A program made the position numbers and the translations under genes. This document shows positions 776 through 24,067 of a stretch of 32,000 nucleotides of DNA, piece after piece; the stretch's first letter is position 1; each line of letters begins with the position of its first letter. Source of the DNA: Candidatus Brocadia sp. (GTDB lineage: Bacteria > Planctomycetota > Brocadiia > Brocadiales > Brocadiaceae); the NCBI GenBank assembly GCA_021650915.1, contig CP091279.1, forward strand, positions 1,410,001 to 1,442,000, written 5' to 3'. The notes below the pieces were generated by a model. That model had not been told where the DNA came from and searched no databases. It was given only the letters and a program-made list of their open reading frames with translations.

Positions 776-2146
776 TCATTGAGGTTGAATATTTTGAAGT
801 GATTTTTTCCGTGATTCCTTAGGATGAACGATCCGTTTCCAGTATTCATCGAATTGGAACTTGGGGCTATGTTCGCTATCATGACATACCAGACAAGTTG
901 TCTCATCCGTTGAACTGTAGGCATCGTTTACATTTTTTACGTGTTTATTCCCGGCGCCATGGCAGCTTTCACACCCAACATGAAATAAGTTCTGATTTTT
1001 TTCGGCATTTAAAAACCCAGACACATTCCCATATCCTGTCGTATGACACTGAATACACTCCGGGTCATATTGATGTCCAACGCCTGCCAGGGTATGATAA
1101 GCAATGCCATGTGCTGTTTTCAACCAGTGATCGTATATTATCTTATGACACGCACTACAGGTAAAACTCCCCGCATAAGCGAGACCATTTGGAAGAGGCG
1201 CCTGTGGAATGCTACTTAATAAATCTTCATCTTTTAATATATTTTGATATTCCTGTAACAAGGAAACCATCTCTTGTGACCCCTGAAAGGAATGGTCTAA
1301 CGGAATAATTTCAACCGACTTTCTTTCTAACATTTTCTTATCCACTCCATACGTTACTATTCCAATATACTTTCCCCCCATTCCGGAAGAAACAATCGGG
1401 GTGTCTTGAACGTATGTTATTGCGTCCTTTGGCTCTTCTATATGGTGACCTGTTATAACTAAGCCTATTTCCGGGAAATATTTTGCAATTTCCTTTGATT
1501 CCTCCAGCGGGGCGTGTGAGAGTAACACAATGAGATTTACCTTATTTCTCAATTGTTTTATGTAAGGCTTTAGAGCCTTTATGGGTTCAGAGAGAGTCAC
1601 ATATTCACTCAGATTGGGATCAAGAAACGACTTCGAAAGAATACCCAAAAAGGCAATTTTTACCCGGGAATCAAAGTCACAACATTCCTTTATCACAGAT
1701 TGATTGATTTTTATAGGAAATGGGGCATTAAAGCTTACATTGGAGGAAAGGAATTCTACGCCTTGTGACTGAGATAAAAAACTGAGCACCTGTGGGTTAA
1801 TTTCAATATCCTTTTCGCCAAGATTATGCAAGATATAGCCCATGAATCCTAACGCACGGGAGAGTGTCTCCATTTTTATTTCATCTTGTCTGCCACTACC
1901 TTTCGGCAGATCACCAAGACTTACCGGCAAGACGCATTTTTTTTGTTTCTTAACAAAATCTATGAATGAATACCTCCTGGAAATACCGCCCAGTTGCCCT
2001 TCGTAACAACCGCACGGTTGCAAATTACCCAATTCTTCACCGGAAAATATTATTGCCACATCCTTCGGGAAGGCGTAAATATTGACAGGAAACATCATGG
2101 GAAAAAAAAGAGCGTACAGCACAAACAACCGCTTCATAGGGGCCAA
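776..2146 (-). CDS. Secreted fusion protein: degenerate calcineurin-like phosphoesterase/5'-nucleotidase-like N-terminal domain plus C-terminal tetrahaem cytochrome c (c554-type multihaem fold)
   Basis: 456-aa ORF with an N-terminal signal peptide (MAPMKRLFVLYALFFPMMFPVNIYA). A GHH motif (LVITGHHIE) and an LGNLQPCGC...GGISRR region resemble metallophosphoesterases, but the usual DxH motif is missing. The C-terminus has four CxxCH motifs (CSACH, CIQCH, CESCH, CLVCH) in the CxxCHttG...CExCHGaG pattern of cytochrome c554-like proteins. The start lies 7 nt after the stop of the upstream gene. Confidence 0.8.
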   Translation of the reverse strand: MAPMKRLFVLYALFFPMMFPVNIYAFPKDVAIIFSGEELGNLQPCGCYEGQLGGISRRYSFIDFVKKQKKCVLPVSLGDLPKGSGRQDEIKMETLSRALGFMGYILHNLGEKDIEINPQVLSFLSQSQGVEFLSSNVSFNAPFPIKINQSVIKECCDFDSRVKIAFLGILSKSFLDPNLSEYVTLSEPIKALKPYIKQLRNKVNLIVLLSHAPLEESKEIAKYFPEIGLVITGHHIEEPKDAITYVQDTPIVSSGMGGKYIGIVTYGVDKKMLERKSVEIIPLDHSFQGSQEMVSLLQEYQNILKDEDLLSSIPQAPLPNGLAYAGSFTCSACHKIIYDHWLKTAHGIAYHTLAGVGHQYDPECIQCHTTGYGNVSGFLNAEKNQNLFHVGCESCHGAGNKHVKNVNDAYSSTDETTCLVCHDSEHSPKFQFDEYWKRIVHPKESRKKSLQNIQPQ

Positions 2147-2153
2147 TTCCTTC

Positions 2154-3188
2154 CTATCCTTTTATTTCCCCGTTTAACGGAATATGAATAACCGGCTGAA
2201 TGGCACTGTTTGTATATATCGTTAAGCTACCAGCAATTTCTCCTATGAACGAATTTTTCTCAACGGTTACCTGGATCTTCTTACTCGTAGGAGTTATTTC
2301 TGTTACGGTGTAATTTATGACCTTTGGGTCAACTTCAATCTTTTCTATTTTTACCGCTTTATTCACAAAGTTAATAATAACCGTCCTATCAGTATTCCGA
2401 TCCTTTGTTACCTTGCCAAAAGATACCATTTCAGGATAAAAGGTGATATCTCCAACAATCTCGCCAGAAAATGGTACGTCTACTCTTTCCTGCTTTCCAC
2501 TGCTCGTATAAACAAATATGATCCCGTTAAATTTGCCAACATAATCATATTTATCAATAGTAATCTGGAAACGATGCGTACTACGATCGTCGCCCTTCTC
2601 TTCTTTAATCGAAACGTAGGGATTCGGGGATTCAACTTTTTTTACCTCAATCTTCAGTTCTGGTATTGTTTTTACCTCTATATTTCTGGTACAAGAATCA
2701 CCCTTTCTGATAATACCAAAATTAATCCGTTTGGGATTAACACTAACTTCTTCTATAACCTCCCCCGCGATCGTAAGTTTCAACGACGAATCTTTTGGAT
2801 CATTTGAGTTCACCATAACAGTTTTTGATACCTTTCCCACATAGCGGCCAGGATTAAATTTAACCTTAACTTCTCCCGTCTCGCCTTTTCTCAGATGACT
2901 CTTCGACACTAATGCGGCAGTGCAACCGCACGATGATTTAACGTTACTTACAATCAATTCACCCTGCCCCTCATTCTTAAACTTAAAGCCGTATTCCACA
3001 ATTTCACCAATAAATATCTTGCCGAAATTATAGATTTGCTCTTCGAATACGATCTTCGGTTTATCGGTTGTTGTTTCCGCACCGCTATCCCCGCCCTGAA
3101 TACTATCAGAAGCAAATGCATCAGTATATAAATATGAAATTATCACTGCTTGCAGTATAAATAAATACACAGTAATTATTTTCATCAT
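2154..3188 (-). CDS. Secreted DUF1573-family protein with about three tandem beta-sandwich (PapD/ASPM-like) domains
   Basis: 344-aa ORF with a signal peptide. The first domain carries the DUF1573 signature (YNFGKI...GELIVSNVKSSCGCTAA). Two further repeats have the same FG...V/I-rich strand periodicity. Confidence 0.8.
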   Translation of the reverse strand: MMKIITVYLFILQAVIISYLYTDAFASDSIQGGDSGAETTTDKPKIVFEEQIYNFGKIFIGEIVEYGFKFKNEGQGELIVSNVKSSCGCTAALVSKSHLRKGETGEVKVKFNPGRYVGKVSKTVMVNSNDPKDSSLKLTIAGEVIEEVSVNPKRINFGIIRKGDSCTRNIEVKTIPELKIEVKKVESPNPYVSIKEEKGDDRSTHRFQITIDKYDYVGKFNGIIFVYTSSGKQERVDVPFSGEIVGDITFYPEMVSFGKVTKDRNTDRTVIINFVNKAVKIEKIEVDPKVINYTVTEITPTSKKIQVTVEKNSFIGEIAGSLTIYTNSAIQPVIHIPLNGEIKG

Positions 3189-3337
3189 AACAAATATCTC
3201 CTTAACGACACATGGTATTTATATGATTGCTTAATGAAGATAATATGAATTGAACGCTTTTTTTATCCAGTTAAAAGCTTATTGAAGTAGTTTAACCTTT
3301 TTATAGAATAAAATCAATCTTGATAATCTATAAACAC

Positions 3338-3385
3338 GAAGAGCTGGGCAGTGAGGAATAACCCCCACAGAAGACCCAGCTCTTC
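3338..3385 (-). terminator. Stem-loop terminator downstream of the hydrazine synthase alpha gene
   Basis: Perfect 11-bp inverted repeat GAAGAGCTGGG (3338..3348) / CCCAGCTCTTC (3375..3385) with a second inner stem (GTGAGG/CCCCAC). It lies 65 nt after the stop, and the transcript continues GUGUUUAUAGAUUAU. Confidence 0.6.
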
Positions 3386-3449
3386 ATGACGTTAATATCC
3401 GTGAGTCCTGGCTTTCACAACCGACAAGCTCAGCGACCTCTCTCAGGCA

Positions 3450-5882
3450 TTATCTTGAATGATACCCCGGATAGAGATCAGGACCCTGGATGTTGTCCCA
3501 CTGTGCCCCTATATCAATCCACTCAACAAACAAATACCTCTCATCCTGCGTGAGGAACTTGTCATGCATTACTCTTCCCTCTATCGGGAATACATTCTCC
3601 CTCGGTGCAAACTGACTCAACGCCGTCTCATACAGCCTCCAAATTAACAAACTGTTGATGGCCGACGACGGATTGACATACTTACCACCAAGGTTGGCGT
3701 CCTTGCCCCTCTGCGGCTCAAGCAAGCTGGTGTACGCACGGCTGAATGCCGACACGCCATCCACACTCACTAACTCCGATCCACCCGACAAATCCGGTGA
3801 ACTGCCCGCATTGTGACAACCTGCACACTTCACATCAATGATCGGCTGAATGTCCCTGCGGAAATCCACCGTTCTCCTCTTATCATCCGTTAACCCTTCC
3901 ACCGGCTGAGATGTCGTTCCTGACGGGCCTCCATAATACACATCCGAAGGCACCACCACATCGTCCCCGTGCTTTACTCCCTGATAGATTCCACTCTTGT
4001 CAAATTTCAGGTACCCAAACGCAAAGGGTGAATCATAATGGCTCCGGTCATCATACCACCAGTTGTACAACGCCTTCGCATGCTGGTTCTGGAACGCCCT
4101 GCCACGGTACGATCCGTCATGACAACCACTGCATATCCTGCCATGATACGGCCTCAAATACGCCCATACCAACGCCGTCTGCACCGCCATTCCCCTCTCA
4201 TCCAGGTTCTGGATATAGTACGGGGTGTCAGCCGTCTGAGACGTTACCACTGAACCATCATCCTCTACATACTGATACCCGATGATCCGCCTCTGCTGGA
4301 ACGCTGTGCCTGAGTTGCTGCTTGAACGACATCCACCCAACAGGTGACTGCCCGCACCAACCTTGAACCTGCTTGCATCCGGCTCAACACACTGCGTACC
4401 TTCCACTATCCTCACCGCCTTCACATCGCCCCGCTTTGTATCCTTCGCCTTCTGATGCGGATAAGGACCTACCGGGATATCGGTCAACGTCGTGTCAAAA
4501 CAAATCCACGTTGCCCATGAATGCGGATACCCTTCCACTTTCACCTGATCAAACGGCTGATACGTCACCGTCGTTACCCCAAAGTTCTTTCCGGCCGTAA
4601 AGGTGTTGATCCACCTCGGACGGTACTTAACGTATATCGGGGCCGGCTGATGATCGTTCCACTCAGGATCATTGTGCACCAATTCCCCAGCCTTGCCATT
4701 CTTGAAATCAAACCAATAGATGCCGAAATCTCCACGCTCTGCATATGACACCAACATCCTGTCGTCAGGAAGCGGATACGGACTCCGGTACAATCCACCA
4801 TCATCCTTCGTCAACCTCTCATAGGTCTTGTTATACGGGGCATCCCAGCTTACCGATGCCAACTGACCTACTCCCCAGTTCATATACGGCGACTCTACAT
4901 ACACCAATCTCCTGTCCCCGAACGTGATCTTGGCCTGTGACCTGCCACTTGCACCGCCAACCTCACCCTCGCAGTTCCCATAGATCGGCCTCGGATACGC
5001 ACCGTCCCAGTTGTCTACACACAGCATTACCCGACCCTTGCCCCCTGCCCTGCTGCCATTGGCCTGGGTGCTGGAGAACAGGATGTTTCCATCCGGCGTC
5101 GTCGTCGGATCAAAGTTCGAACTGATGTTGTAGGTGATCTGGTCTATCGTCGTATTGATGCTCGGGAACTCTATACCCGACAACACGTGACCGGTAATTC
5201 TCTCCGTCACATGCCCGCCCTGCGTATCCAACCGGAACAGGTTATACGCATACGGATTGTGGAACTCATCCATGACGCCGTCCGGAGAACCTGCAAAGAT
5301 GATGAACCCGGTCTTCTCTACCGTGCCCCTCTCCTTCCAGTCTCCTTCAAAGTACCGGTCACGCCATATGATGCGTCCCTGACCTTCTTCGATACTGCCT
5401 GCTGCATAATAGATCGGCGCACGGCAGGTGCCCTTGTAATCCGTCATCTGCCTCAAACCGCTGCCGTCTACGTTCATCTCCCATATCTGGCATCCGCCGC
5501 CCTTCTTGTGCACCCCGGCAAATGCAAATTTCTTCCCGTCCCAATACGTTGAAGGATCAAAGGCCGTTGCAAAATCATTCGTCAATACCTTCAATTCCTT
5601 CGTCTTTAAATTGTACAGCACAATCCGGCTGCCCTCTGGCACATAGTGCGGATAGTTCTGATACGGATCTCCCTTTGTCGTCCTCGGTGACTGCGTAAAT
5701 AATAACGCATCGACCGGACCCTGCACTTCCTTCGACATCCCGCTATAATCAGTCCATAAGGCCTTTCCCTGCTTCGAACCGCCTACCATCACCTGGTTGC
5801 CCGATGCAAAGACGCTCCCACAGACCAACGCACCTGCCATGATCGCAGACGCCACCACTCCTCCTATTTTCCTCTTACTCAT
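3450..5882 (-). CDS. hzsA: Hydrazine synthase alpha subunit
   Basis: ORF 3450..5903. I prefer the ATG at 5882 (AAAGGAGAAGG about 8 nt upstream), which gives MSKRKIGGVVASAIMAGALVCGSVFA as a signal peptide. The large propeller-like N-terminal part is followed by two C-terminal CxxCH motifs (CSGCH, CAGCH). The peptides YFEGDW and HYDSPF are encoded by exact matches to the degenerate hzsA primers as I recall them (plus strand 5337..5354 and 4023..4042, 1332 bp apart). Confidence 0.93.
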   Translation of the reverse strand: MSKRKIGGVVASAIMAGALVCGSVFASGNQVMVGGSKQGKALWTDYSGMSKEVQGPVDALLFTQSPRTTKGDPYQNYPHYVPEGSRIVLYNLKTKELKVLTNDFATAFDPSTYWDGKKFAFAGVHKKGGGCQIWEMNVDGSGLRQMTDYKGTCRAPIYYAAGSIEEGQGRIIWRDRYFEGDWKERGTVEKTGFIIFAGSPDGVMDEFHNPYAYNLFRLDTQGGHVTERITGHVLSGIEFPSINTTIDQITYNISSNFDPTTTPDGNILFSSTQANGSRAGGKGRVMLCVDNWDGAYPRPIYGNCEGEVGGASGRSQAKITFGDRRLVYVESPYMNWGVGQLASVSWDAPYNKTYERLTKDDGGLYRSPYPLPDDRMLVSYAERGDFGIYWFDFKNGKAGELVHNDPEWNDHQPAPIYVKYRPRWINTFTAGKNFGVTTVTYQPFDQVKVEGYPHSWATWICFDTTLTDIPVGPYPHQKAKDTKRGDVKAVRIVEGTQCVEPDASRFKVGAGSHLLGGCRSSSNSGTAFQQRRIIGYQYVEDDGSVVTSQTADTPYYIQNLDERGMAVQTALVWAYLRPYHGRICSGCHDGSYRGRAFQNQHAKALYNWWYDDRSHYDSPFAFGYLKFDKSGIYQGVKHGDDVVVPSDVYYGGPSGTTSQPVEGLTDDKRRTVDFRRDIQPIIDVKCAGCHNAGSSPDLSGGSELVSVDGVSAFSRAYTSLLEPQRGKDANLGGKYVNPSSAINSLLIWRLYETALSQFAPRENVFPIEGRVMHDKFLTQDERYLFVEWIDIGAQWDNIQGPDLYPGYHSR

Positions 5883-5978
5883 CTGTTGGCCTTCTCCTTT
5901 CACTATTTTTTGGAATTCTCAAATATTTCTCTCATTCTCCAAAGGGCAAACACCTGGTTCACCCCTCCACAAAACCTC

Positions 5979-7004
5979 TTACAGCGCCTTCAGGAATTCA
6001 ACCAGGTCCTGCATCTCCTGCTGAGTCAAATGCGACGTCCTTCCATGCATGTCCTTCTCATTCACCGTGTTGTTGATCGTGTCTATCAACGTCCGGGCTC
6101 CCCCGTCATGGAAATACGTACCCGATGCATAAATATCCCTCAACGTCGGCGTGTCAAACTCCTTCACCAGGTCCAGCCCGATGATCGGCGTGTCACTCTC
6201 CTCGCCATAGGGATCTTCCCCTGCCTCTAATGCCTTCAGGTTAAAGACCTTTCCCGGCGTTGAACGGAAACCCTTTACCCCAACACGGCCCGTCCCCACG
6301 TCATGGGTCTGCGCATCGCTAAAAAGCGCCTTCGGATCACTTGCATCACCCGGATGGCACTCCACACATCCCACATTCGGATCGTTGAATATCTTCTCGC
6401 CCCTCTTCTGCGCATCCGTCAGCGAACCATCCGGATTCCTGAACGGACTTCCCGTGAATTCCAGCGCACGGATGTAGCAGATCAACGCCTCCAACCTCAA
6501 TGGCGAAAAGTTCTCACTCCTGAACACAAACCCAGGGTCTCTTCCGCACACCCTGTCCAGCGAACTCGTTGCTCCCACGATCTCATCCGGATGTCCCGTG
6601 AATCCCTCATGACGGAACGGCGGCAAATACCTTCCCCCACGGATGTACTTCGTGTTCTTCCAGCTTCCCCATCCCTCATCACCAAGGTCCCAGATCAATC
6701 CCGTCGTCTGGCCCCTCTCGTAATGACAGCTCGCGCATGCATACTCACCCTGAAGACCCCAAGATGCATCGTTAAACTGGAACTGCCCGTACCGCACCAG
6801 CTCGCTCTTGTACGGTGAGTGCTTTACCCGATAATGCACCTCCGGCACCGTAAGCGGTTCTGCCCGCGGAAGCGGCTCCCACTCCGGCCCCGTCTGGATC
6901 GTCGCCACTACCTGCGGCGTACCGGCCATCAACTGGCCAGTCGTCGCTACCCCCATGATCCCCAGAGCGGCTATCAAACCGATCTTTTTTATTCCACTTT
7001 TCAT
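5979..7004 (-). CDS. hzsB: Hydrazine synthase dihaem subunit (structural gamma subunit; cytochrome c peroxidase/MauG-like)
   Basis: ORF 5979..7193. I prefer the ATG at 7004 (AAGGAGGAG upstream), which gives the signal peptide MKSGIKKIGLIAALGIMGVATTG. There are two CxxCH motifs (CASCH, CVECH) and the CCP/MauG-type motif FDTPTLRDI...YFHDGG. Plus strand 6292..6311 and 6657..6676 exactly match the degenerate hzsB primers as I recall them. Naming caveat: under hzsCBA operon naming this is hzsB, but in the structural literature it is the gamma subunit. Confidence 0.9.
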   Translation of the reverse strand: MKSGIKKIGLIAALGIMGVATTGQLMAGTPQVVATIQTGPEWEPLPRAEPLTVPEVHYRVKHSPYKSELVRYGQFQFNDASWGLQGEYACASCHYERGQTTGLIWDLGDEGWGSWKNTKYIRGGRYLPPFRHEGFTGHPDEIVGATSSLDRVCGRDPGFVFRSENFSPLRLEALICYIRALEFTGSPFRNPDGSLTDAQKRGEKIFNDPNVGCVECHPGDASDPKALFSDAQTHDVGTGRVGVKGFRSTPGKVFNLKALEAGEDPYGEESDTPIIGLDLVKEFDTPTLRDIYASGTYFHDGGARTLIDTINNTVNEKDMHGRTSHLTQQEMQDLVEFLKAL

Positions 7005-7108
7005 AACTCTTTTCTCCTCCTTAATGAATTGCCCTATTTCTGAATTCTTACCGCTTATCACTCTCTTACTACTTTTCTCTCTGTAATCAGCACGACTATG
7101 CGCCACAA

Positions 7109-8239
7109 TTAATCCACCGGCGTCCTTATCACGGACACGTTGTTGGAAAAATAGTTCGCTGCATAGCAATACTTCCCATCCGGTGATAAACACACTGAGC
7201 TTGGCCCAAGTCCCGTCGGCACCCTGGCCACCAGATAATCCCTTACAAATCCAAGATCATCCCTCAGGTAATCCAGCTCCGCCTGTGAATTCCCGCGCAC
7301 GGCGTTCAACACCTTCGCCATATCCAGGATCGTTACCCGGTGCATGCCTCTTACCCCAATATACAGATACCGGCCCTTCGGATCCATCGCCAACCCGTAC
7401 GGATTTCCATCGTAGTTGTTCAACTCATCCAGCGGCAACCGCGCTACCTTACCACCCGGCTTCGTCTCCAGCACCGCGATGTTGTTCGTAAAGACCTGCC
7501 CGTTCTCTGCCTCGCACACCGGCAACCAGTTCTTCGGCGTCTCATACGTCACCACCACATACTGCCCATCAGGCGTATATACCACATCCCTCAGGTTGGA
7601 ACTCTCACGGATTACCCGCTTCTCAAGCACACGGCTCGTGTCCACATCAATAAAATTCACGCTCCGGCTAATCGAACCTACCGTGTCATTAATCACCGCA
7701 AGCGTCTTGCCGTCCGGCGATATGTCCAAGGTCCTTGGACCGTAATCACTCGTGTAGATCGCCCTCGTCTTCTCCATCCTCCCCGTGTCTATCACATCAA
7801 CCGTGTTCCACATATTTCCCGAACATGCAACGTATGCCGTCTTCCCGTCTCTGGAAATCTTTATCCCGCTTGGCCAGTCCCCCACCTTGATCTCCTTGAC
7901 GACCTGCTTGCGCGCCACGTCAATCACCGACACGCTGTCGCTCTCGGCATTGCATACATACAAAAACGCATTGTCCGGCGTTGTCGCCGCCGCCTCAGGC
8001 TGCACTCCTACCGCAACCTCACCCGTCACCTTCTGCGTCCGGGCATCCACAAACGTCACGCTATGCCCCGACTGATTGCAGATATACAACGTCCCTCCAT
8101 CCGGCGACGTCGTGATATGAAACGGCCCCGGCAGATCCGTCTTCACGTGTGTCCCCTGGATAAACCCAGCGCTCGACACACCCACCACCGACAGCACCGC
8201 TCCCACTACCGCTGCTCCTATCCATCCTCTTCCTTTCAT
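7109..8239 (-). CDS. hzsC: Hydrazine synthase beta-propeller subunit (structural beta subunit)
   Basis: ORF 7109..8308. I prefer the ATG at 8239 (AGGAGGGAAGGAAG upstream), which gives the signal peptide MKGRGWIGAAVVGAVLSVVGVSSA. It contains repeated YVTN/lactonase-type propeller blades (LYICNQSGHSVTFVD, LYVCNAESDSVSVID, AYVACSG..NTVDVID, CYAANYFSNNVSVI). It is the first gene of the three, as in the hzsCBA order; the symbol usage B/C differs between papers. Confidence 0.88.
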   Translation of the reverse strand: MKGRGWIGAAVVGAVLSVVGVSSAGFIQGTHVKTDLPGPFHITTSPDGGTLYICNQSGHSVTFVDARTQKVTGEVAVGVQPEAAATTPDNAFLYVCNAESDSVSVIDVARKQVVKEIKVGDWPSGIKISRDGKTAYVACSGNMWNTVDVIDTGRMEKTRAIYTSDYGPRTLDISPDGKTLAVINDTVGSISRSVNFIDVDTSRVLEKRVIRESSNLRDVVYTPDGQYVVVTYETPKNWLPVCEAENGQVFTNNIAVLETKPGGKVARLPLDELNNYDGNPYGLAMDPKGRYLYIGVRGMHRVTILDMAKVLNAVRGNSQAELDYLRDDLGFVRDYLVARVPTGLGPSSVCLSPDGKYCYAANYFSNNVSVIRTPVD

Positions 8240-8294
8240 CGCTCTTCCTTCCCTCCTATATCTTCGATTTTCTACAATGCAAAATAAAGCACAC

Positions 8295-8837
8295 CTATTT
8301 CGTAACATGCGGACAAGTACCTGATTTCGTACATATTATTTCCAAAGCCACACCGCACGTCTCACAATCACCTGCTTTTTCAATTTGTGGCGCATACCTT
8401 CCCTTCATCGTTGCAAAACCTTTCCCTGGTTCTGGGGTTTCTTTGCCGCATTTGGGGCATTTAAATAATGCTCTCGCCCAAATTTTTTTGCTGGTAATAT
8501 CATCTCCGCATTCATCACAGGCACCAGGAGCTGGCATACATACTCCATATTTCTTACAATTGGTATTTACACAACTGTAAGCAATCTTTTGGCATGCCCA
8601 GCATGTAGGCAAATCGGTATGGGTCTTGTCCCCTGCAGCACGATGTTTTGCAAAATCCCAGATATATCCGATTTCAGAACACTCATTAAATTCACGAACA
8701 TCTTTGCATGCATCACACCAATATGCTTCTAAAATCTGCCGTTTATCGCACGGTTTATCCCATGCAGCAAAAACTGGCTGACCCAGAGAAACAATCATGC
8801 TTACCATACCTGCAGCTAGAAAAAAAGTCCTTTTCAT
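8295..8837 (-). CDS. Small secreted Cys-rich protein of unknown family (five CxxC pairs, zinc-ribbon-like knuckles)
   Basis: ORF 8295..8849 starts at a GTG; I prefer the ATG at 8837. The signal peptide is MKRTFFLAAGMVSMIVSLGQPVFA. The mature part has 17 Cys, including CDAC, CWAC, CDEC, CPKC and CETC. The stop is 55 nt upstream of the first hzs start, on the same strand. Confidence 0.75.
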   Translation of the reverse strand: MKRTFFLAAGMVSMIVSLGQPVFAAWDKPCDKRQILEAYWCDACKDVREFNECSEIGYIWDFAKHRAAGDKTHTDLPTCWACQKIAYSCVNTNCKKYGVCMPAPGACDECGDDITSKKIWARALFKCPKCGKETPEPGKGFATMKGRYAPQIEKAGDCETCGVALEIICTKSGTCPHVTK

Positions 8838-8910
8838 AATTCTACTCACCCCCTTCCGTATGTTTTTTTCGTTCTTTTTAGAAATATATCACGCAACCAA
8901 ATTAACATGC

Positions 8911-8925
8911 GCACAAGTCATACCA
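8911..8925 (-). promoter_or_regulatory. Candidate sigma-54 (-24/-12) promoter upstream of the Cys-rich gene and hzs operon
   Basis: The minus strand reads TGGTATGACTTGTGC, which has the correct GG-N10-GC spacing of the TGGCAC-N5-TTGC consensus with flanking T's. It lies about 75 nt upstream of the ATG at 8837 and directly downstream of a sigma-54 activator gene. This is a pattern match only. Confidence 0.3.
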
Positions 8926-9074
8926 AACACGCTACATGTTCTACATAAATCATAACCAGTTCATTAATGGTGAATTAAAAAAACCAACTTTATTCATGCT
9001 CATATCCTTTGTACAACAGTTTGGTTTAATTCAACCATTTTTATAGTCTTTGCCTTCTGCAAGACCATTATCAA

Positions 9075-10466
9075 TCAATTTGCAAGACCATACTTTTGTA
9101 ACCTATACCGAAATGTGCCTCTTGTTAAACCAAGCAACTTTGCAGCTTTTGTTTTATTATTTTTACTTTTTTCGAGCGCTTGCGTAACCAACTGTTTTTC
9201 TAGGGCGTCCAGAGATAAACCATGCGGGGGAATATCAAATGAAACCAACCGATCTACGGATTGCGCTTTATCTCTATTAACATATTGTGCACACCTTACT
9301 ATCGTCACCGGCAAGTGCTCAGAAGTGATTACGTTTGTCTTACAAAGAATTACCGCTCGTTCAATAACATTTTGCAACTCCCTGATATTACCTTCCCACT
9401 TATGCAGGACAAGCAATTTTTCCGCTTCCTTGCTTAACGAAACCGGCGATTTACCCATTTTTATGGAAAACCGTTTTAAGAAGTGCCTGCTCAATGGAAT
9501 AATGTCTTCACTTCTTTCTCTTAACGGCGTCAGGGTAATTGGAAAAACACTTATTCTGTAATATAAATCTTCTCTAAATTTTCCCGCTCTTACCAATTCT
9601 TCAAGATTCTTATTGGTTGCGCATATAATCCTGCTATCAGCTTTAATCGTTTCCGTACCACCAAGACGCTCCATTTCTTTCGCCTCAATCACCCGCAGCA
9701 CTTTTGCCTGGACAGACATACTCATTTCTGATATTTCGTCCATGAAAAAAGTACCCCCTGACGCTAGTTCAAAACGTCCTTTTTTTGTTTTTTCCGCGTT
9801 AGTAAATGCACCTCGTTCATAACCAAACAATTCACTTTCAAGCAAATTTTCCGGTATCGCAGCGCAATTCACCACAACAAGAGGACCACCCCCTCTGTTG
9901 CTGTTATAGTGAATTGCACGCGCAATTAGTTCCTTTCCTGTACCACTTTCTCCCGTTATCAATACCGTTGAGTCGGTTTTCGATACTTCACCAACCAATC
10001 TCAATGCCTCAATTACCTGCGGTGAATTACCTATGATATTTTTAAAGTCATACTGGGATTCAAGTTCTTGACGTAAATATTTATTTTCAATGGTAAGAGT
10101 GCTCATTTTCAGCGCCCTATTCACAGCCAACTTAAGAATTTCTTTCTCAAACGGCGTGGTAAGGTAGTCAAAAACCCCTTCTTTCATCACGTCAATTACT
10201 GACCCAACAGAGCCAAAAGCTGTTAGCACTATAATGGGCAGGTCGGGAACCTTGCATTTGATTGCCTTGAGAAATTCGAGCCTTCCCATTTCCTGAACTT
10301 TGAGATCCGTTATGAGAAGATGAAACCGCTCATTCTCAAGATAATCAAGCGTTGACTCACAACAACTTGTCGTCACAACCTTGACATCTTTCATCTCCTC
10401 AAAAACCATAGCAAGCACTCTTCGCATGCGTTCTTCATCATCTGCAATTAAAACTCTGTAAGCCAT
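9075..10466 (-). CDS. Sigma-54-dependent response regulator (NtrC family: receiver + AAA+ + Fis-type HTH)
   Basis: 463 aa. The receiver domain has an acidic pocket (LIADDEE ... LLITDLKV). The Walker A motif is GESGTGKE, the sigma-54 contact loop is ERGAFTNA (a variant of GAFTGA), and the C-terminal HTH is KTKAAKLLGLTRGTFRYRLQKYGL. There is no adjacent histidine kinase. Confidence 0.9.
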   Translation of the reverse strand: MAYRVLIADDEERMRRVLAMVFEEMKDVKVVTTSCCESTLDYLENERFHLLITDLKVQEMGRLEFLKAIKCKVPDLPIIVLTAFGSVGSVIDVMKEGVFDYLTTPFEKEILKLAVNRALKMSTLTIENKYLRQELESQYDFKNIIGNSPQVIEALRLVGEVSKTDSTVLITGESGTGKELIARAIHYNSNRGGGPLVVVNCAAIPENLLESELFGYERGAFTNAEKTKKGRFELASGGTFFMDEISEMSMSVQAKVLRVIEAKEMERLGGTETIKADSRIICATNKNLEELVRAGKFREDLYYRISVFPITLTPLRERSEDIIPLSRHFLKRFSIKMGKSPVSLSKEAEKLLVLHKWEGNIRELQNVIERAVILCKTNVITSEHLPVTIVRCAQYVNRDKAQSVDRLVSFDIPPHGLSLDALEKQLVTQALEKSKNNKTKAAKLLGLTRGTFRYRLQKYGLAN

Positions 10467-10544
10467 TCTACACCTAATTATGCTTATAGTCTTTTAAAAC
10501 TTACAAAGGCTTGCCAGTTTCTTACCGAATTGATGCCTGTTGTT

Positions 10545-11390
10545 TCATATAGCCCAAACGATAAGAGCGGAAAACATGAATCCTACCATGATTAACCCGG
10601 TAATTAAGATGGGAACCGCAAACAACCTCGTTAGAAAACTTACGAACAGTGAAGGGGGAGCAACTTTATAATTTTCCAACTGCTGCTGACTTTCAAGTCT
10701 TTTAAACTGATTAAGTCGCTCATGTCGAAATTCTGCCTCTGTTATTTTACCGGTAAAAATCGCCTCATCAACGGGCATTTTTTCCGGTAGCAGGTGGGTG
10801 TGAAAAAAGTGAATCGTGAATATAAAACCAGCCGCCAGAATCGCCTCATATCGATGAATGATCAAGGCTATACTTGGAAGATCAACTATCGTGGCAACTG
10901 AAACGGGGATAATTTTTGTGAATTGCACGGGGAACCATAGAATTAATCCAGTGACCGCCATTACCAATGTTCCCCACATCAACGATAAGTATTCAAACTT
11001 TTCCCAATAAATCCATTGGTCAAAATTAGGACGCTTCCCAATACCAAGAAACCATTTAAGATCAGCAACAATATCAAACAGATCTCTCGGTTGAATGAGC
11101 AAAGAATTTGGCCCCCAAAAGAAGCCCTTCCTTTTTTGAACGGATATACAAATAAACAAGTAGAGAAAATGAATAAAGGCAGCAAAAAAAGTTATGAGCG
11201 CACAAATACGATGAATAAATCCAGCCGTTGGGTAACCGCCAAACAGCTCATATAGCCAACGCGCCCATGCGTAACCTCTAAATGCCAGAGGCATCCCCGT
11301 TAAGACAAGGCCAAAAAAACTTATAATGATCAAAAAGTGGCAAAACCTGTGAAATAAACTAAACCTCACGTAATTAATGCTGCTCTTCAT
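10545..11390 (-). CDS. Integral-membrane b-type cytochrome (FdnI / Ni-Fe hydrogenase cytochrome b-like), putative quinol-interacting subunit
   Basis: ORF 10545..11417; a start at ATG 11390 (MKSSINYVRF) is plausible. It has the family signature RFSLFHRFCHFLIIISFFGLVLTG and several TM helices with conserved His (IHRICA, IHFLY, IHRYEA, HFFHTH). It overlaps the stop of the upstream heptahaem gene, which suggests translational coupling. Confidence 0.75.
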   Translation of the reverse strand: MKSSINYVRFSLFHRFCHFLIIISFFGLVLTGMPLAFRGYAWARWLYELFGGYPTAGFIHRICALITFFAAFIHFLYLFICISVQKRKGFFWGPNSLLIQPRDLFDIVADLKWFLGIGKRPNFDQWIYWEKFEYLSLMWGTLVMAVTGLILWFPVQFTKIIPVSVATIVDLPSIALIIHRYEAILAAGFIFTIHFFHTHLLPEKMPVDEAIFTGKITEAEFRHERLNQFKRLESQQQLENYKVAPPSLFVSFLTRLFAVPILITGLIMVGFMFSALIVWAI

Positions 11391-12426
11391 CTGTATGCCC
11401 CTTTCCCTTATACTCATCTCGCGCTACAGCAAACCAACTTAGCAATGAATGAATTCCAAAAGAAGAAAATGTAAACGCCAAAATCCCCACATACATTACA
11501 AATACAGCACATAAAATTGTCTGCGGGTTCTTTAAAATGGTTTTAAGATTTTCCGGATTACTTCGCGCTTCTTTTATCGCCGATATCAATTTTTTATAAT
11601 AATTTATATTCTTAATCTGCGGATGCTCTACATGCTTTACAAAACTCGCATTGGCACCTGCATGACAATTACCGCATGTTTCCAAAATCTTTTCTTTGCC
11701 GACTTTCGATTCCGGGTCGGTCGAGTTCAAGATCTTATGCTTGCCATGACAATCAAAGCATACCGGGACATCAGTATCCGTGTGACCAAGCGCAGTGACC
11801 TGGCCATGAGCATTATTTCGATAGCTATCAAGATATTCCTGATGGCACTCCCCGCACGACTCAATTGTTAATCTTCTGTGTAATGGATCCGTTCCTCTAG
11901 GCACATCCATTGGTGATTTCTCACCAAGCGATGTATAATGATAAGTCAAACCTGCATGGCAATCCTTGCACGTCGGGACATCTTTGTTGTTTTGCTTCAT
12001 CAATTTCACGTGGTTGCTTTGTAAATAATCGTCTGCCGGGTCGTCGTGACAAAAAGTTATGCAATCAACTGGTTTCAGATTTGGCTTGTGGCCTTCCGTT
12101 AGATCCGCCCCATCAAGATCCTGGTGGCAATCAGTGCAAAAGAAATCTTCCCCCCCGTGAGCTGAAGCCTTAAAGGTTACTTCATCAACTACCATCGAAA
12201 CCACCTTAATTTCGCCTGTGACGGGATTGATCTTCGCCTTTTCAACAGTCTTTAGCTTATCCGGCTTGGTATGACATTCAATACATGGGCCGTTATCGCC
12301 TGCAGTTAAAACTGCAGGCGACAGACCAATGATAGCCACACTTACGACAACAAGTACGCACAATTTAATTTTTTTAAAACTCGACAAAACTTCACCTCTT
12401 AAGCTTTTCTCTGACTTATAAACCAT
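11374..12426 (-). CDS. Heptahaem c-type cytochrome with N-terminal signal/anchor and C-terminal TM helix
   Basis: 350 aa with GAGGAGG upstream of the ATG. There are six CxxCH motifs (CIECH, CTDCH, CKDCH, CGECH, CFDCH, CGNCH) plus one CxxxCH (CITFCH). A hydrophobic C-terminal helix (ILCAVFVMYVGILAFTFSSFGI) is present. Confidence 0.85.
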   Translation of the reverse strand: MVYKSEKSLRGEVLSSFKKIKLCVLVVVSVAIIGLSPAVLTAGDNGPCIECHTKPDKLKTVEKAKINPVTGEIKVVSMVVDEVTFKASAHGGEDFFCTDCHQDLDGADLTEGHKPNLKPVDCITFCHDDPADDYLQSNHVKLMKQNNKDVPTCKDCHAGLTYHYTSLGEKSPMDVPRGTDPLHRRLTIESCGECHQEYLDSYRNNAHGQVTALGHTDTDVPVCFDCHGKHKILNSTDPESKVGKEKILETCGNCHAGANASFVKHVEHPQIKNINYYKKLISAIKEARSNPENLKTILKNPQTILCAVFVMYVGILAFTFSSFGIHSLLSWFAVARDEYKGKGHTDEEQH

Positions 12427-12469
12427 CTACGGAATCCTCCTCAGCTAGATAACTCTTAAGCCCAAAGAG

Positions 12470-13180
12470 TTATTCCTTTTTCTTTGGTTTTAATGGTGTA
12501 TTAAGAATCTCATCTTTCGGCAACAGAGCGGCCCACTTCTTTTTGTCCTCGGGAGAAAGCTTTTTAATCAATACATCAATTTCATCCTCATCGCGATGAT
12601 CGTCCTTCTTGAAATAATCTTTATAATCCATAACCTTATCCGTCTTTGGACATTTGTTTTTATCATCTTTATTTTCCCAATGACAGGTCAGGCATTGCTC
12701 TTTTACCGTTGCGGGTCCGTTAATCCCAGCCACAATCAAGCCGGCATCAAACTGCACCTTCCTTGCTTCAAAAGGATCCTTCTTTAACAATTCCTTAAAT
12801 GCGTCCTTTCCCTTACCCTGGAAGTTCTCCTTTAATTTTTTATACTCAGAACCAGCGCCATGACAGGCCTCGCATTGTACATTCGGCAAATATTTTTTGC
12901 CAACTTCAGCGATCTTTTCACCGTACGCGGTAGCGTGGCATTTCAAGCAATCAGGATTTTCCGCATCCGGAGTTCCTTTCAGCCTTTTTTCCCATGTATT
13001 GGAATGCAATCTCTCTTTGTATTCTTCGCCCTCAAAGCAACCTTTTCCCATATGACACTTACAGCCGCTATTACCAACAAAATCAGCACCATTGGATATT
13101 GCCGGAAGAGAAGAAGCTAAACTCCACACAGAAACCACAATACCACTTATCAAACACAGAGTTTTTCTACCACCAAACAT
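12470..13180 (-). CDS. Secreted multihaem c-type cytochrome (c554-like), three canonical haem motifs plus one contracted CxCH
   Basis: 236 aa with a signal peptide. Motifs are CLKCH, CEACH and CLTCH, plus CKCH. The pattern CLKCHATAYG...VQCEACHGAGSEY is typical of cytochrome c554-family proteins. The C-terminal tail is lysine-rich. Confidence 0.85.
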   Translation of the reverse strand: MFGGRKTLCLISGIVVSVWSLASSLPAISNGADFVGNSGCKCHMGKGCFEGEEYKERLHSNTWEKRLKGTPDAENPDCLKCHATAYGEKIAEVGKKYLPNVQCEACHGAGSEYKKLKENFQGKGKDAFKELLKKDPFEARKVQFDAGLIVAGINGPATVKEQCLTCHWENKDDKNKCPKTDKVMDYKDYFKKDDHRDEDEIDVLIKKLSPEDKKKWAALLPKDEILNTPLKPKKKE

Positions 13181-13405
13181 TACAATCTCCTTTCCTAGTT
13201 ACCAAAAAAAATTACAAAACTGTCTTATCCCGTTTTTATCTCCCAACTCCATACATTCTCATCGCATCTAAATCAAACCAATCCATTCTCCTTTATGATA
13301 CGCACGCAAACGCACCTGTAGAACATTTGATTCAAGCAGAAGTTACTTTTTGGAGAACGGTAGATTAGCATGCTTTTTAAATAGTGTCAAGAAAAAATTC
13401 ACGTA

Positions 13406-14761
13406 TCATGAATGCTGATTTTTCAGCAATAAATTTTCCACAAAATTCGTATTGATATTCCCACTTGCAAATTGCGAATGTGCAATTAGCTCTAAATTGA
13501 GCGGAATGGTCGTCTTAATACCTTCGATCACGTATTCACCTAAAGCCCTTTTCATACACGCGATTGCTTCTTCTCGTGTTTTTTGATGAACAATTAGCTT
13601 TGAAATCATAGAATCATAATACGGAGGAACCTGATACCCGGCGTGTACGTGAGAGTCAACCCTTACGCCTCTTCCACCAGGCGGGTTATAGAACGTTATC
13701 TTACCTGGTTGAGGGCGAAACCCGTTGTTTGGGTCTTCAGCATTTATTCGGCACTCTATTGCAACGCCACGGGGTCTGACTCTTTTTTGCTTTATATTCA
13801 TGCGTTCACCACTTGCAATTCTTATCTGTTGTTTCACTAAATCAATACCGGTAACCATCTCCGTAACGGGATGCTCCACCTGAAGGCGGGTATTTACCTC
13901 TATAAAATAAAAATCACCCGCTTTATTTACTAAAAATTCAACGGTACCAGCATTAGTATAATTCACTGCCTTTGCAATTTTAATTGCCGCCTTGCATATC
14001 TCCTCACGTAAGCGTTCAGATATCGCAGGAGATGGGGATTCTTCTATGAGCTTTTGATGTTTTCGCTGTAAAGTACAGTCCCTTTCACCCAGGTGGATGA
14101 TATTACCGTAATTATCACCAAATATTTGCACCTCTACGTGGCGCGTATCTTCAATATATTTTTCTATGTATATCGATGGATCTTTAAAAGCCGATTCCGC
14201 TTCCCGTTGAGCAATCGCCAAGGAATTTACCAGACTTATGTCGTTGTGGGCAACGCGCATCCCACGCCCGCCACCACCAGAAGACGCTTTAATAATAACG
14301 GGATATCCAATCTTGTGTGCCACATCAAGCGCTTGCTGCTGACTTTTGATAACCGATTCACTCCCCGGGACTACAGGCACTTTACAAGCCTGAGCAATTT
14401 TTCTCGCTTCGGTTTTGTCTCCCAGTTTTTTCAATACGTCTGATTTCGGACCAATAAATACTATTTTGGAGGATTCGCACACTTCGGCAAAATGACTCAC
14501 CTCTGACAAAAAACCATATCCAGGATGTATCGCTTCAATATCCGTTATCTCTGCGGCACTGATAATGCTCGGAATATTCAAATAACTACCTTCTGCCTCT
14601 GAGGGACCGACACACACCGTAATATCTGCTTGCTTTAAATACATGGCATCTTTATCCGACTTCGAACATATTGCAACGGTTTCTATGCCCATTTCACGAC
14701 AAGCCCGAATAATTCTTAAAGCAATCTCGCCACGATTTGCAACCATTATCCTGGAAAACAT
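13406..14761 (-). CDS. accC: Acetyl-CoA carboxylase biotin carboxylase subunit
   Basis: 451 aa. It begins with the [31 protein letters not shown]-terminus and has an ATP-grasp region (GGGGRGMRV), both highly characteristic. Confidence 0.95.
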
Positions 14762-14813
14762 ACCCTTTGTTATCCTTCAGTCATTAATTTTATGAAGTTT
14801 ACCAACATCTCTG

Positions 14814-15278
14814 TCACTGTGCTGATCGCCTAACACGAAAGAGTGGCTGGCCAAATTCTACTGCCTCGCCGTCATTGACATAAATATCCACAATTTCGCC
14901 TACCATTTCAGCTTTCACTTCGTTCATGATCTTCATTGCTTCAATGATACACACAACGGTCTCTTCATTCACAACATCTCCCACATTCGCACACGGCTCC
15001 GCACCAGGGGCATTGGCCCGATAAAATGTACCCACCATCGGAGAAATTATCTCTTTCGTATTTTCACCCTCTTTCGACAACACAGGCACCTGATGTCTTT
15101 GCTCTAACGACGAAGTATAGAGAGGGGGGACTGCAACTGCGGAAGCAACGGTATGCGTATAACCAGCATCACTCTTTTTCAGCCTTATTTTTGTGACATC
15201 TTCCTGAATTTCAATTTCAGACAACTCGTTTTCATTCATAATGGAAATTAATTGCTTTACCTTGTCTATAATACTCAT
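14814..15278 (-). CDS. accB: Biotin carboxyl carrier protein of acetyl-CoA carboxylase
   Basis: 154 aa with the biotinyl-lysine motif IEAMKIMNEV near the C-terminus. It lies immediately upstream of accC. Confidence 0.92.
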   Translation of the reverse strand: MSIIDKVKQLISIMNENELSEIEIQEDVTKIRLKKSDAGYTHTVASAVAVPPLYTSSLEQRHQVPVLSKEGENTKEIISPMVGTFYRANAPGAEPCANVGDVVNEETVVCIIEAMKIMNEVKAEMVGEIVDIYVNDGEAVEFGQPLFRVRRSAQ

Positions 15279-15492
15279 GTTTCATTCCTTAATATGGAGT
15301 TTGTTTTTAATCATTAAACAGGAAAGCCAGCAAAATCTTCTGTTAATCCGTATGAGGAATACCTTTGTTTAAGAACTACGCGGAGAAATAGGAAACGAAA
15401 TTCTGGTGGAACAAAATGAAGGGCTGCTGTATAGATTCTTTTTTACTATACTTTGTGTAACAGGCAACGGCATGTTCTCTTTATTAATTTAT

Positions 15493-16563
15493 TTATCCTG
15501 CTATTTCTTCAAGCCTTTTTGGTATGCGACTTAAAACTTCACAACCGCTGGGAGTAACCAACACCATGTCCTCGATACGTATGCCACCCCAACCTGGGAT
15601 ATAAATTCCAGGTTCTACGGTAAATACCATATTCTCTTCTAATACTTCCTTGCTCCTGCTGTTAATGACAGGCCCCTCATGAACCTCAAGCCCAATGCCA
15701 TGCCCTAATCCGTGACCAAAGCACTTTGCGAATCCTTTTTTTTCAATATAACTTCTTGCCGCACTATCGATTTCTTTTGCCTTTCGGCCAGGTTTTATGC
15801 TGTCAATAGCAAAACCTTGTGCATCTAACACTATCTGATATATCTTCTTATAATCGGGGGATATTTTATCTATGAACCGAACCCTTGTCAAGTCGGAATT
15901 ATAAAACTGAAAACACGCACCCCAATCAATTAAAATTGCTTCTTTTTCCCCGATAATTCTCTCTGTCGGGTGCGCATGCGGCAGCGAAGCCCGTTGTCCC
16001 GTAGCGCAGATTATTTCAAAGGCGCTTCTTTCGCCACCATGATTTCTTATTTCAAGCTCCAGAATATCCGCAATTTTCTTTTCTGATAAGCCAACCCCTA
16101 TTTTCTTTTCCACACGGTTATATGCCTTCTCAGCAATAGAAATAGCCGTCCGAATCTTCTCTAACTCCTGATCTGTTTTTCGTTTCCGATATTCCTCAAC
16201 AATTCCCTTCGTTGGTATAAGATGTATCCCACCATAGCTGCCTAAAATTTCATGGTACTGGTGAACGGTAAGAAAGAGCGCTTCGATAGAAAGCTCTTTG
16301 ATCTTAAGACGTTTGAGTTTCGCACTAATTGTCCTCTCCAACGAAACCTTTTTTTCAACAACGGTAATCCACGGGATATCTTTCTGGGCTTGCTCGACGT
16401 ATCGAAAGTCCGTGAACAAGTAATCCCTCTCCCGCGTGATTAAAAGAATGCTCTCACTACCTGTAAATTTTGTAATATAATGAATATTTACCGCATTTGT
16501 GACTAAGAATCCATCTACATGCTCTTCTGTTAACGTCTGCTTTATTTTCTTCAAACAATTCAT
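15493..16563 (-). CDS. M24-family Xaa-Pro aminopeptidase/dipeptidase
   Basis: 356 aa with a creatinase-like N-domain and the metal-ligand motifs HGLGHGIGLEVHE and VEPGIY...GGIRIED. Confidence 0.88.
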   Translation of the reverse strand: MNCLKKIKQTLTEEHVDGFLVTNAVNIHYITKFTGSESILLITRERDYLFTDFRYVEQAQKDIPWITVVEKKVSLERTISAKLKRLKIKELSIEALFLTVHQYHEILGSYGGIHLIPTKGIVEEYRKRKTDQELEKIRTAISIAEKAYNRVEKKIGVGLSEKKIADILELEIRNHGGERSAFEIICATGQRASLPHAHPTERIIGEKEAILIDWGACFQFYNSDLTRVRFIDKISPDYKKIYQIVLDAQGFAIDSIKPGRKAKEIDSAARSYIEKKGFAKCFGHGLGHGIGLEVHEGPVINSRSKEVLEENMVFTVEPGIYIPGWGGIRIEDMVLVTPSGCEVLSRIPKRLEEIAG

Positions 16564-16600
16564 AGCAAATCATCTTGCTTGCAAAAAGCATCCTGTTATA

Positions 16601-17947: not shown

Positions 17948-17974
17948 TACTCGTGGTATCCTTTTACGCTATGA

Positions 17975-18590
17975 AGAAGTTCGTTTTGGAAATGAAATAA
18001 GATTCATCGTTGAAGGAAGCCGATATTAGCAGAAGGATTTGTAGCTGTCAAAATAAAAAGATATCGCTGTCCTTAAAATACTTTTGGCATAACTACGTTT
18101 TTCACCTAACATCTTTATAAATAAAACAATTAAAAAAAATATAATTCCTACAATAAATTTACAAATAAATTTATTTAAACAATATTCACAACTGGACCTT
18201 TTGCTATAAAAAATATTTTGTTTTATAATATCATAGTAAATTGAAACTTAGAAACACCTCTCTTTTTTACTGCTTTTTTATTGCATTATTTTATTAGATA
18301 TAACCAAACCCTTCTTTTAAAAACTCTTTTATACCATAAAAATAAATTGTTGATAAGTTGTGGATTATTAGTTAAAAAAAAGAAGAGTTGTCAGATATAA
18401 TATATTAACAATAAAGAACATACATCATCTGCAATTTGCTTTAAATAATTTCCATCCTAATGTTAACAACAACAGAATTGTTTACTATCGTCATTAAAAT
18501 GCAGGCAATATTTTCAGCTACCATTTAAGAAGGGCTACGCTTTCAAAAAATGCCGATTGATTTCAAACTATTGTCAATAAAATTTACGAT
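17975..18590. other. AT-rich putative oriC / dnaA promoter region
   Basis: This is a very AT-rich ORF-free tract directly upstream of dnaA. DnaA-box-like sequences are TGTGGATTA (18359..18367, 1 mismatch) and ATATTCACA (18182..18190, 2 mismatches). Long A/T runs around 18110..18180 could serve as an unwinding element. Confidence 0.4.
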
Positions 18591-19356: not shown

Positions 19357-19471
19357 TGTCAATATTTATGTTAATTATTCCTTGGCTCACGCTGTACTTT
19401 TTGTCAGACTAAAGAAAATTTGTTAATACCATTGTTGGTAACCCAACACAACAAAGAAAGGAACCGCAAGA

Positions 19472-24058: not shown

Positions 24059-24067
24059 GAGTACACA

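Follow-up and report, generated by a model that had tools for sequence, protein, structure and literature searches.

A hydrazine synthase operon of a Brocadia anammox bacterium, with a likely fourth gene and an apparent second copy of its core

The hydrazine synthase (HZS) of the anammox bacterium Candidatus Kuenenia stuttgartiensis is made of three exported subunits that form an (alpha-beta-gamma)2 complex in the anammoxosome. Electrons enter from a cytochrome partner at the surface-exposed, bis-histidine haem gamma-II, nitric oxide (NO) is reduced to hydroxylamine at haem gamma-I, which has three covalent cysteine links, and hydroxylamine and ammonia yield N2H4 at the tyrosine-ligated haem alpha-I beside a zinc site (PMC12053348). 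The hydroxylamine passes through an intramolecular tunnel lined by a loop of the beta subunit. The Kuenenia 'hydrazine synthase gene cluster' has been tabulated (PMC6423088) and described (PMC12053348), and its haem b and haem c proteins are described as bringing quinol-derived electrons to HZS (PMC12053348). Here we compare with this system a locus in a 32,000-nucleotide stretch of Candidatus Brocadia sp. DNA (contig CP091279.1, positions 1,410,001 to 1,442,000), hereafter the window. Positions 3335-8925 of its minus strand are almost certainly a hydrazine synthase operon, and the anammox bacterium that carries it is of the Candidatus Brocadia fulgida type. As the literature disagrees on locus tag and letter for subunits beta and gamma, we note that gene order, primer location and the chains of the crystal structure fix the propeller as kuste2859, hzsC and beta, and the dihaem protein as kuste2860, hzsB and gamma.

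Three consecutive minus-strand genes make up the core of the locus: hzsC (7109..8239, 376 amino acids (aa)), encoding the beta subunit, a seven-bladed YVTN beta-propeller without cofactor; hzsB (5979..7004, 341 aa), encoding the gamma subunit, a dihaem protein resembling cytochrome c peroxidase (CCP) and MauG; and hzsA (3450..5882, 810 aa), encoding the alpha subunit, in which a propeller is followed by a middle domain with haem alpha-I and a C-terminal cytochrome c domain with haem alpha-II. A first-pass annotation, made from the letters alone, had described these three genes as having the subunit architecture of HZS, and all the features it listed were found where it had placed them, including the two CxxCH motifs of the dihaem protein (residues 90 and 213) and the two in the C-terminal part of the 810-aa protein (584 and 686). 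The HzsC propeller was found to have no CxxCH motif. The full open reading frames (ORFs) are somewhat longer (7109..8308, 5979..7193 and 3450..5903), and the lengths of 376, 341 and 810 aa follow from internal ATG starts at 8239, 7004 and 5882. These starts are the correct ones as judged by alignment, because the N-termini of the mature crystal chains align directly after segments resembling signal peptides: the chains begin at residue 25 of HzsC and residue 28 of HzsB, and the alpha chain begins no more than two residues from the predicted HzsA cleavage site. Each of the three proteins has a hydrophobic N-terminal segment, a predicted signal peptide that would direct its export. A stop codon and a spacing of 104 nt separate hzsC from hzsB.

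The identity of the subunits is carried by searches against all PDB sequences, in which the best match of each protein was the corresponding chain of the Kuenenia stuttgartiensis enzyme (PDB 5C2V/5C2W; chains A, C and B are alpha, gamma and beta). All three alignments are gapless: HzsA matches 5c2v_A with 1598 bits and 647 of 777 residues identical (83.3%), HzsB matches 5c2v_C with 677 bits (280/314, 89.2%), and HzsC matches 5c2v_B with 682 bits (293/352, 83.2%). The three NCBIfam equivalog models agree, with HzsA scoring 1576 bits on NF052339 (hydrazine_alpha; cut-off 800), HzsB 739.9 bits on NF052341 (hydrazine_gamma; cut-off 625) and HzsC 753.7 bits on NF052340 (hydrazine_beta; cut-off 560); HzsC also matches the YVTN repeat model TIGR02276, and HzsA contains the Pfam HZS_alpha middle domain PF18582 (E = 6.6e-29). 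For the other two subunits Pfam taken alone would leave room for a periplasmic YVTN propeller of no special kind, a peroxidase of the CCP/MauG type and a cytochrome that lie together by chance, as it gives HzsC only the generic propeller families Lactonase and YncE and HzsB only weak matches to CCP_MauG and cytochrome c. Against such a chance grouping, the second-best PDB matches fall far behind, scoring 143 bits (an S-layer propeller) and 29 bits (a cytochrome c peroxidase), the MauG and MbnH models reach 27-51 bits against cut-offs of 360-440, and the HZS-specific models exceed theirs; the PDB, Pfam and NCBIfam searches together refute it, and we leave it practically no probability. HzsB was likewise rejected as a dihaem cytochrome c peroxidase or MauG in its own right, with 27.5 bits on TIGR03791 (cut-off 444) and His132 in place of the catalytic tryptophan.

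The predicted cofactor sites were compared residue by residue, using a list of ligands compiled from PMC12758564 and a 2023 spectroscopy preprint and a fixed numbering offset, which can be applied because the alignments are gapless. Every listed haem, zinc and catalytic ligand that was checked is kept in HzsA and HzsB. The predicted haem alpha-I site of HzsA retains C584, C587, H588 (the putative zinc ligand), S591 and Y592 (the putative proximal haem ligand), with C304, the counterpart of Kuenenia Cys303, as the predicted second zinc ligand; the predicted haem alpha-II site retains C686, C689, H690 and H773, the last corresponding to the distal His772 of Kuenenia. In HzsB the predicted haem gamma-I site retains C90, C93, H94, the third putatively haem-linked cysteine C153, D156 and H132, where C153, D156 and H132 correspond to Kuenenia Cys165, Asp168 and His144, and the predicted haem gamma-II site retains C213, C216 and H217. 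By analogy with Kuenenia, HzsB would be the site at which NO is reduced to hydroxylamine and HzsA the site at which hydroxylamine condenses with ammonia.

These residues also bear on a closer rival, namely that the genes encode an HZS-like alpha/beta-gamma pair of the same fold, of a kind that occurs in Planctomycetota outside the anammox group and in other anaerobes (clades I-IV, PMC12758564) and is not known to produce hydrazine. Such homologues exist and were detected at 27-31% identity (comparison loci L037, L038, L040 and L042), and they have the dihaem and propeller architecture in common with the window proteins. The Ser-Tyr pair after the alpha-I haem is, however, deleted in all clade I-III homologues (PMC12758564), and the position of gamma His132 is occupied by tryptophan both in CCP/MauG and in the non-anammox homologues (PMC12758564 and the 2023 preprint), so that the pair and the histidine together separate true HZS from its non-anammox relatives. 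The window proteins have alpha Ser591, Tyr592 and Cys304 and gamma His132, their genes stand in the order beta, gamma, alpha as in anammox bacteria, and they are, without gaps, 83-89% identical to the Kuenenia enzyme, which has been characterised biochemically. The rival is thus already refuted at the level of sequence, and we give it next to no credence. We conclude that hzsC, hzsB and hzsA are, by the same comparisons, intact orthologues of kuste2859, kuste2860 and kuste2861.

Diagnostic primers for anammox bacteria gave a concordant result. Each of four degenerate primers has exactly one match in the window, without mismatch, and still only one when one mismatch is allowed, as against none in 100 shuffled sequences. 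The hzsA sites (5337-5354 and 4023-4042) delimit an amplicon of 1332 bp, equal to 5354-4023+1 and to the 1857-526+1 implied by the primer names, and the hzsB sites (6657-6676 and 6292-6311) one of 385 bp. The first-pass annotation had given these primers, their positions and the 1332-bp amplicon; positions and amplicon were confirmed, and the primer sequences agree with those printed for hzsA_526F/1857R (PMC5653767) and HSBeta396F/742R (PMC9899793).

The exact HzsA, HzsB and HzsC sequences and most of the neighbouring proteins are already public, both for Candidatus Brocadia fulgida (KKO accessions) and for Brocadia sp. L3J18 (UJS accessions, a 4.05-Mb contig), and the regulator, haem proteins and DUF1573 protein described below are also identical to public KKO/UJS entries. 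The exact HzsC entry is named 'Hydrazine synthase subunit C, Ca. Brocadia fulgida'; for several other entries the label is no more specific than 'hypothetical protein', 'c-type cytochrome' or 'lactonase family protein'. Among GTDB species representatives the nearest HzsA proteins are those of B. carolinensis, Brocadia sp. WS118, AMX1 and B. pituitae, at 95-96% identity in the best tblastn segment and 95.8-96.1% in a trimmed alignment; B. sapporoensis and Jettenia follow at 88% (about 91% trimmed), and Loosdrechtia and Kuenenia-like genomes at 81-83% (86-87% trimmed). The grouping with Brocadia rests on these identity values and not on the shape of the neighbour-joining tree, and the Scalindua row was disregarded. 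The first-pass annotation had proposed assigning a genus from hzsA, comparing the products with kuste2859-2861 and with the crystal structure, and looking for other anammox markers in the genome. The identity values and exact public proteins give Brocadia; the orthologues are colinear in the kuste2854-2861 order; the alignment with 5C2V is gapless with the predicted haem and metal ligands kept; and an octahaem gene related to hydroxylamine oxidoreductase (HAO) stands 3' of the other hzsA copy in 99.9%-identical contigs. The assignment to hydrazine synthase is thus correct, but the system is a known one: it fixes the organism as a Brocadia anammox bacterium and frames the rest of the window without adding new biology. 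What can be added is modest, namely a likely four-gene sigma-54 operon, exact boundaries of a repeat with shuffled flanks, and an island of high G+C content at third codon positions (GC3).

The hzsCBA genes (3450-8239, minus strand, counterparts of kuste2859-2861) are the last of eight genes whose order is colinear with the kuste2854-2861 cluster of Kuenenia, with haem counts in agreement. On the same strand upstream lie genes for a trihaem cytochrome c with three CxxCH motifs (12470-13180, kuste2854), a heptahaem cytochrome c with six CxxCH motifs and one CxxxCH motif (11374-12426, kuste2855), an FdoI-like cytochrome b (10545-11417, kuste2856), an NtrC-type sigma-54-dependent response regulator with the Pfam domains Response_reg, Sigma54_activat and HTH_8 (9075..10466, kuste2857) and a small Cys-rich protein (8295-8837, kuste2858). 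This synteny extends from Brocadia as far as Anammoxibacter and Scalindua. The cytochrome b, heptahaem and trihaem proteins encoded alongside would pass electrons from the quinol pool to HZS, and the kuste2857 homologue likely activates the operon.

The region 3338-8925 had been read in the first pass as a three-gene operon, and the hzsCBA part of that reading stands; the fourth gene, at 8295-8837, lies within the same limits and had gone unmentioned. Those limits coincide with two elements, 3338 with a terminator-like hairpin (3335-3388) and 8925 with the first base of a sigma-54-type element. The latter is a candidate -24/-12 element, TGGTATGACTTGTGC (GG-N10-GC), at 8911..8925 on the minus strand, 88 nt upstream of the Cys-rich gene, and it is conserved as TGGTAT-N5-NTGC at -88 to -103 in three Brocadia loci (L004, L013 and L023). 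Five loci retain the adjacent sigma-54 regulator gene, and the pattern TGG-N9-TGC is present in all of them; of five loci without the gene none has it. The second group includes one locus with only a remnant of the regulator, and four of the five positive loci belong to the phylogenetically related Brocadiaceae; this co-occurrence suggests that element and regulator belong together, although it is not independent evidence. In the locus with the remnant (L015 6661-6870, genome MFD09964) only 70 aa of the regulator are left between cytochrome b and the Cys-rich gene and the -24/-12 element is lost too, and the loss of both is consistent with a functional coupling. The 11-nt sequence TGCAAGACCAT (coding strand: ATGGTCTTGCA) was also observed as a direct repeat at 9058-9068 and 9081-9091, at the 3' end of the regulator gene and upstream of the sigma-54 element.

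At the other end, 62 nt past the hzsA stop, a terminator-like compound hairpin with a 15-bp outer and a 7-bp inner stem, followed by GUGUUUAUAG, occupies 3335..3388 of the minus strand. The segment 3325-3449 folds at -49.8 kcal/mol (z = -4.5), and none of 200 shuffles was as stable. A simple scan for terminators and promoters gave counts at chance level, and the hairpin was missed by it because its loop is too long. Between the four genes the intergenic lengths are 55, 104 and 96 nt, Shine-Dalgarno sequences precede each gene, and the intergenic regions showed no significant structure or terminator-like element. The transcription unit probably consists of four genes, the Cys-rich gene and hzsCBA: transcription would start at the sigma-54 promoter (8911-8925), activated by the neighbouring NtrC-type regulator, read first the Cys-rich gene and then hzsCBA, and end at the hairpin.

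The product of the fourth gene is a predicted secreted protein of 180 aa with a signal peptide, 17 cysteines and five CxxC motifs; the gene call in L043 has the same length. Its gene stands directly 5' of hzsC in every locus with the ancestral context, from Brocadia to Scalindua, at 43-92% identity, and 13-15 cysteines together with His73 and His177 are invariant or nearly so across anammox families. Scans with Pfam and NCBIfam gave no match, a profile search of the PDB gave only insignificant zinc-finger similarity (best E = 0.028), and an AlphaFold2 model from a 14-sequence alignment was too poor to use (mean predicted local distance difference test score 56.8; predicted template modelling score 0.40). 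The family is rare, with 19 clusters in a search of 5.8 billion proteins and 31 representatives at E <= 0.001 among 1.84 billion, and nearly all its known occurrences are next to hzs in anammox bacteria. More distantly related proteins, about 157 aa long, have a C-terminal SGTxPHV motif in common with it; for two of these (P0125 and P0123) no HZS-like genes adjoin, so their context gives no support for a link with HZS, and one (P0125) sits after a sigma-54 regulator gene. Another protein, P0117 (824 aa), has a long N-terminal region of PQINNSGQVVW-type repeats and, at its C-terminus, a domain of the Cys-rich family, either as a real fusion or as an artefact of gene calling. In Kuenenia, kuste2858 is listed as an 'unknown protein' and was detected in the proteome (PMC6423088), and within the open-access literature searched kuste2857 and kuste2858 occur only in gene tables. 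The Cys-rich protein may be an accessory of HZS that, for instance, donates metal (Zn), helps in assembly or acts as a small redox relay.

We infer that the window hzsCBA genes are one of two nearly identical copies in the genome. Contigs that are 99.5-99.9% identical align exactly over 3332-8271 and then diverge or end, which delimits a repeat unit of 4940 bp (3332..8271) made of hzsCBA with 32 bp upstream and 118 bp downstream. A single genome submission holds the identical HzsA under two accessions, and B. pituitae, H5_AMX3 and MFD09964 each have two hzs loci. Two identical hzs copies with different surroundings have been reported in Brocadiaceae (PMC12758564) and two copies in Kuenenia CSTR1 (PMC12053348), and within the open-access literature searched the duplication is mentioned only in passing, in these two papers. 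With the second hzsCBA copies go a histidine kinase of their own and a paralogue of the sigma-54 regulator, and a near-consensus element, TGGTACGNNNNTTGCT, lies 215-270 nt before hzsC. Conserved inverted repeats, GTGACCATAAATAGTCAC and GTGACCGTTTATGGTCTT, were also seen farther upstream in the leaders of second copies, before hzsC (L005, L006 and L016); these and the 11-nt direct repeat described above are candidate binding sites for the activators.

The flanks of the repeat occur in more than one arrangement. Downstream, the first type, found in the window and in L044, comprises a gene for a secreted DUF1573/OS_HP2-like protein (2154-3188, minus strand) after the hairpin 3' of hzsA, followed by one whose product is UshA-like at its N-terminus and ends in a four-haem, cytochrome c554-like part (776-2146, minus strand); the second type (L043 and L045-L047) has the octahaem HAO-like gene and trpBA. 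Upstream lies either the Cys-rich gene (window and L043) or an unrelated sequence that resembles the leader of the second copy in other species (L048). Across the Brocadiaceae the DUF1573 and tetrahaem pair was seen linked to one of the two hzsA copies.

The window arrangement, with module and regulator upstream and DUF1573 and tetrahaem genes downstream, might be an artefact of an assembly join across the exact 4.94-kb repeat, in which case hzsCBA would still be real. In favour of such a join, L043, 99.87% identical over 3332-15882, has the same upstream flank and then the HAO-like octahaem gene, trpB and trpA; copy 1 of B. pituitae has the L043-type pairing, and the DUF1573 and c554 genes follow copy 2; and many assemblies break exactly at 3332 and 8271. 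The window pairing is nevertheless that of H5_AMX3 and MFD09964, where it stands on megabase contigs (L023 and L015), and the alleles at 3354 and 3615 track the downstream context, the window having the DUF1573-linked ones. L043, moreover, itself comes from short reads. Recombination between inverted copies, which are found in B. pituitae and MFD09964, could give both forms, so that either this or an assembly join would account for the flank pairing of the window; we consider the join improbable, though it keeps more weight than either of the rivals discussed above.

The repeat unit also differs from its surroundings in composition. GC3 is 0.68 in hzsC, 0.67 in hzsB and 0.63 in hzsA, whereas every neighbour on that side, even the Cys-rich gene only 55 nt away, has 0.32-0.42, and the GC-rich island coincides with 3332-8271 and has sharp edges. 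The HAO-like gene beside the other hzs copy is not raised (0.42). The contrast is seen in other Brocadiaceae as well, is weak in Scalindua, and was absent in Anammoxibacter, JP1 and RIFCSPLOWO2_12_FULL_50_35. Nearly identical strains differ mostly inside the repeat unit, which holds 14 of the 17 mismatches between the window and L043. Codon selection in the most highly expressed genes and GC-biased gene conversion between the copies both fit the island.

Taken together, these observations allow a wider and tentative proposal, which we hold to be possible but rather doubtful: that the functional unit is larger than three genes, with a sigma-54 promoter driving a Cys-rich HZS accessory protein and hzsCBA, and with the hzsCBA duplicate kept nearly identical by gene conversion. 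Under it the high GC3 of hzsCBA would reflect biased conversion and not codon selection alone. Several points weigh against the main account of the locus. A scan of the window for the sigma-54 consensus with three mismatches gave 38 matches where 41.6 are expected and is uninformative, so the promoter call rests on conservation across genomes, and at two positions where the consensus has C the element has T. Kuenenia proteome data put the abundance of kuste2858 about 100-fold below that of HzsCBA (PMC6423088), which makes simple equimolar co-expression unlikely, an internal promoter or differential mRNA stability being possible. As only 32 bp upstream of hzsC lie within the repeat, the two copies must use different promoters, and the flank pairing of the window differs both from that of its close relative L043 and from that of B. 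pituitae. Sigma-54 control, an always-adjacent Cys-rich protein and a duplicated GC3-rich core offer, in our view, starting points for work on the regulation and maintenance of the anammox genes with the highest expression.

Elsewhere in the window, accC (biotin carboxylase), accB (biotin carboxyl carrier protein) and an M24 Xaa-Pro aminopeptidase gene (13406-16563, minus strand) lie between the electron-transfer module and dnaA (16601-17947, minus strand), and these three genes are syntenic in other Brocadiaceae. All genes from 776 to 17947 are on the minus strand and those from 19472 to 26086 on the plus strand. The segment between them (17948-19471), which adjoins dnaA, has the lowest GC of the window (34%) and carries two adjacent near-consensus DnaA boxes at 18348-18367, is possibly a replication origin. 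A search of the window for DnaA boxes gave 11 matches where 9.35 are expected, so that box density gives the origin call no support. If the segment is an origin, its distance from the hzs cluster is about 9-15 kb, and the cluster points in the direction of replication. Within dnaA lies a 482-bp stretch that occurs a second time as a direct repeat with 97.5% identity (16735-17216 and 18875-19356), giving a 146-aa DnaA-fragment ORF at 18894-19334. On the plus strand a DabA/DabB-type pair for inorganic carbon uptake (21422-26086; DabA of 878 aa at 641 bits, and a Proton_antipo_M subunit of 672 aa) shows a moderate rise in GC3, to about 0.56. The window was also scanned for Rfam families and tRNAs, and neither scan found anything.

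Compared with the described systems, the window locus is closest to the KKO/UJS deposits, from which it differs in no substantive way apart from 184-aa and 456-aa window ORFs that are delimited with other start codons. The Kuenenia system has the same three subunits in the same order and with equal mature lengths, the same eight-gene neighbourhood, and all the haem, zinc and catalytic residues that were checked, but belongs to another genus and differs at 11-17% of residues; the residue after the alpha-I CxxCH motif is Asp in the window HzsA and Tyr in Kuenenia, and the annotated N-terminus of HzsB differs. Scalindua HZS (scal00025, NF052342) has homologous domains and a homologous module upstream, with regulator and Cys-rich protein (L041), but its beta and gamma subunits are fused, as the first-pass annotation had stated (PMC3655542), whereas in the window propeller and dihaem protein are encoded by separate genes. 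A fusion of the Scalindua type was considered for the window and rejected, since there are two ORFs and they score 656 and 549 bits on NF052342 against a cut-off of 1250. In B. pituitae (AP021856; L004 and L005) the hzsCBA core is duplicated too, with boundaries that match 3332-8271; one copy stands after the electron-transfer module, regulator and Cys-rich gene and the other after a histidine kinase and a second sigma-54 regulator. There the HAO-like gene and trpBA come after the module-linked copy and the DUF1573 and tetrahaem genes after the other, whereas in the window it is the module-linked copy that is followed by the DUF1573 and tetrahaem genes.

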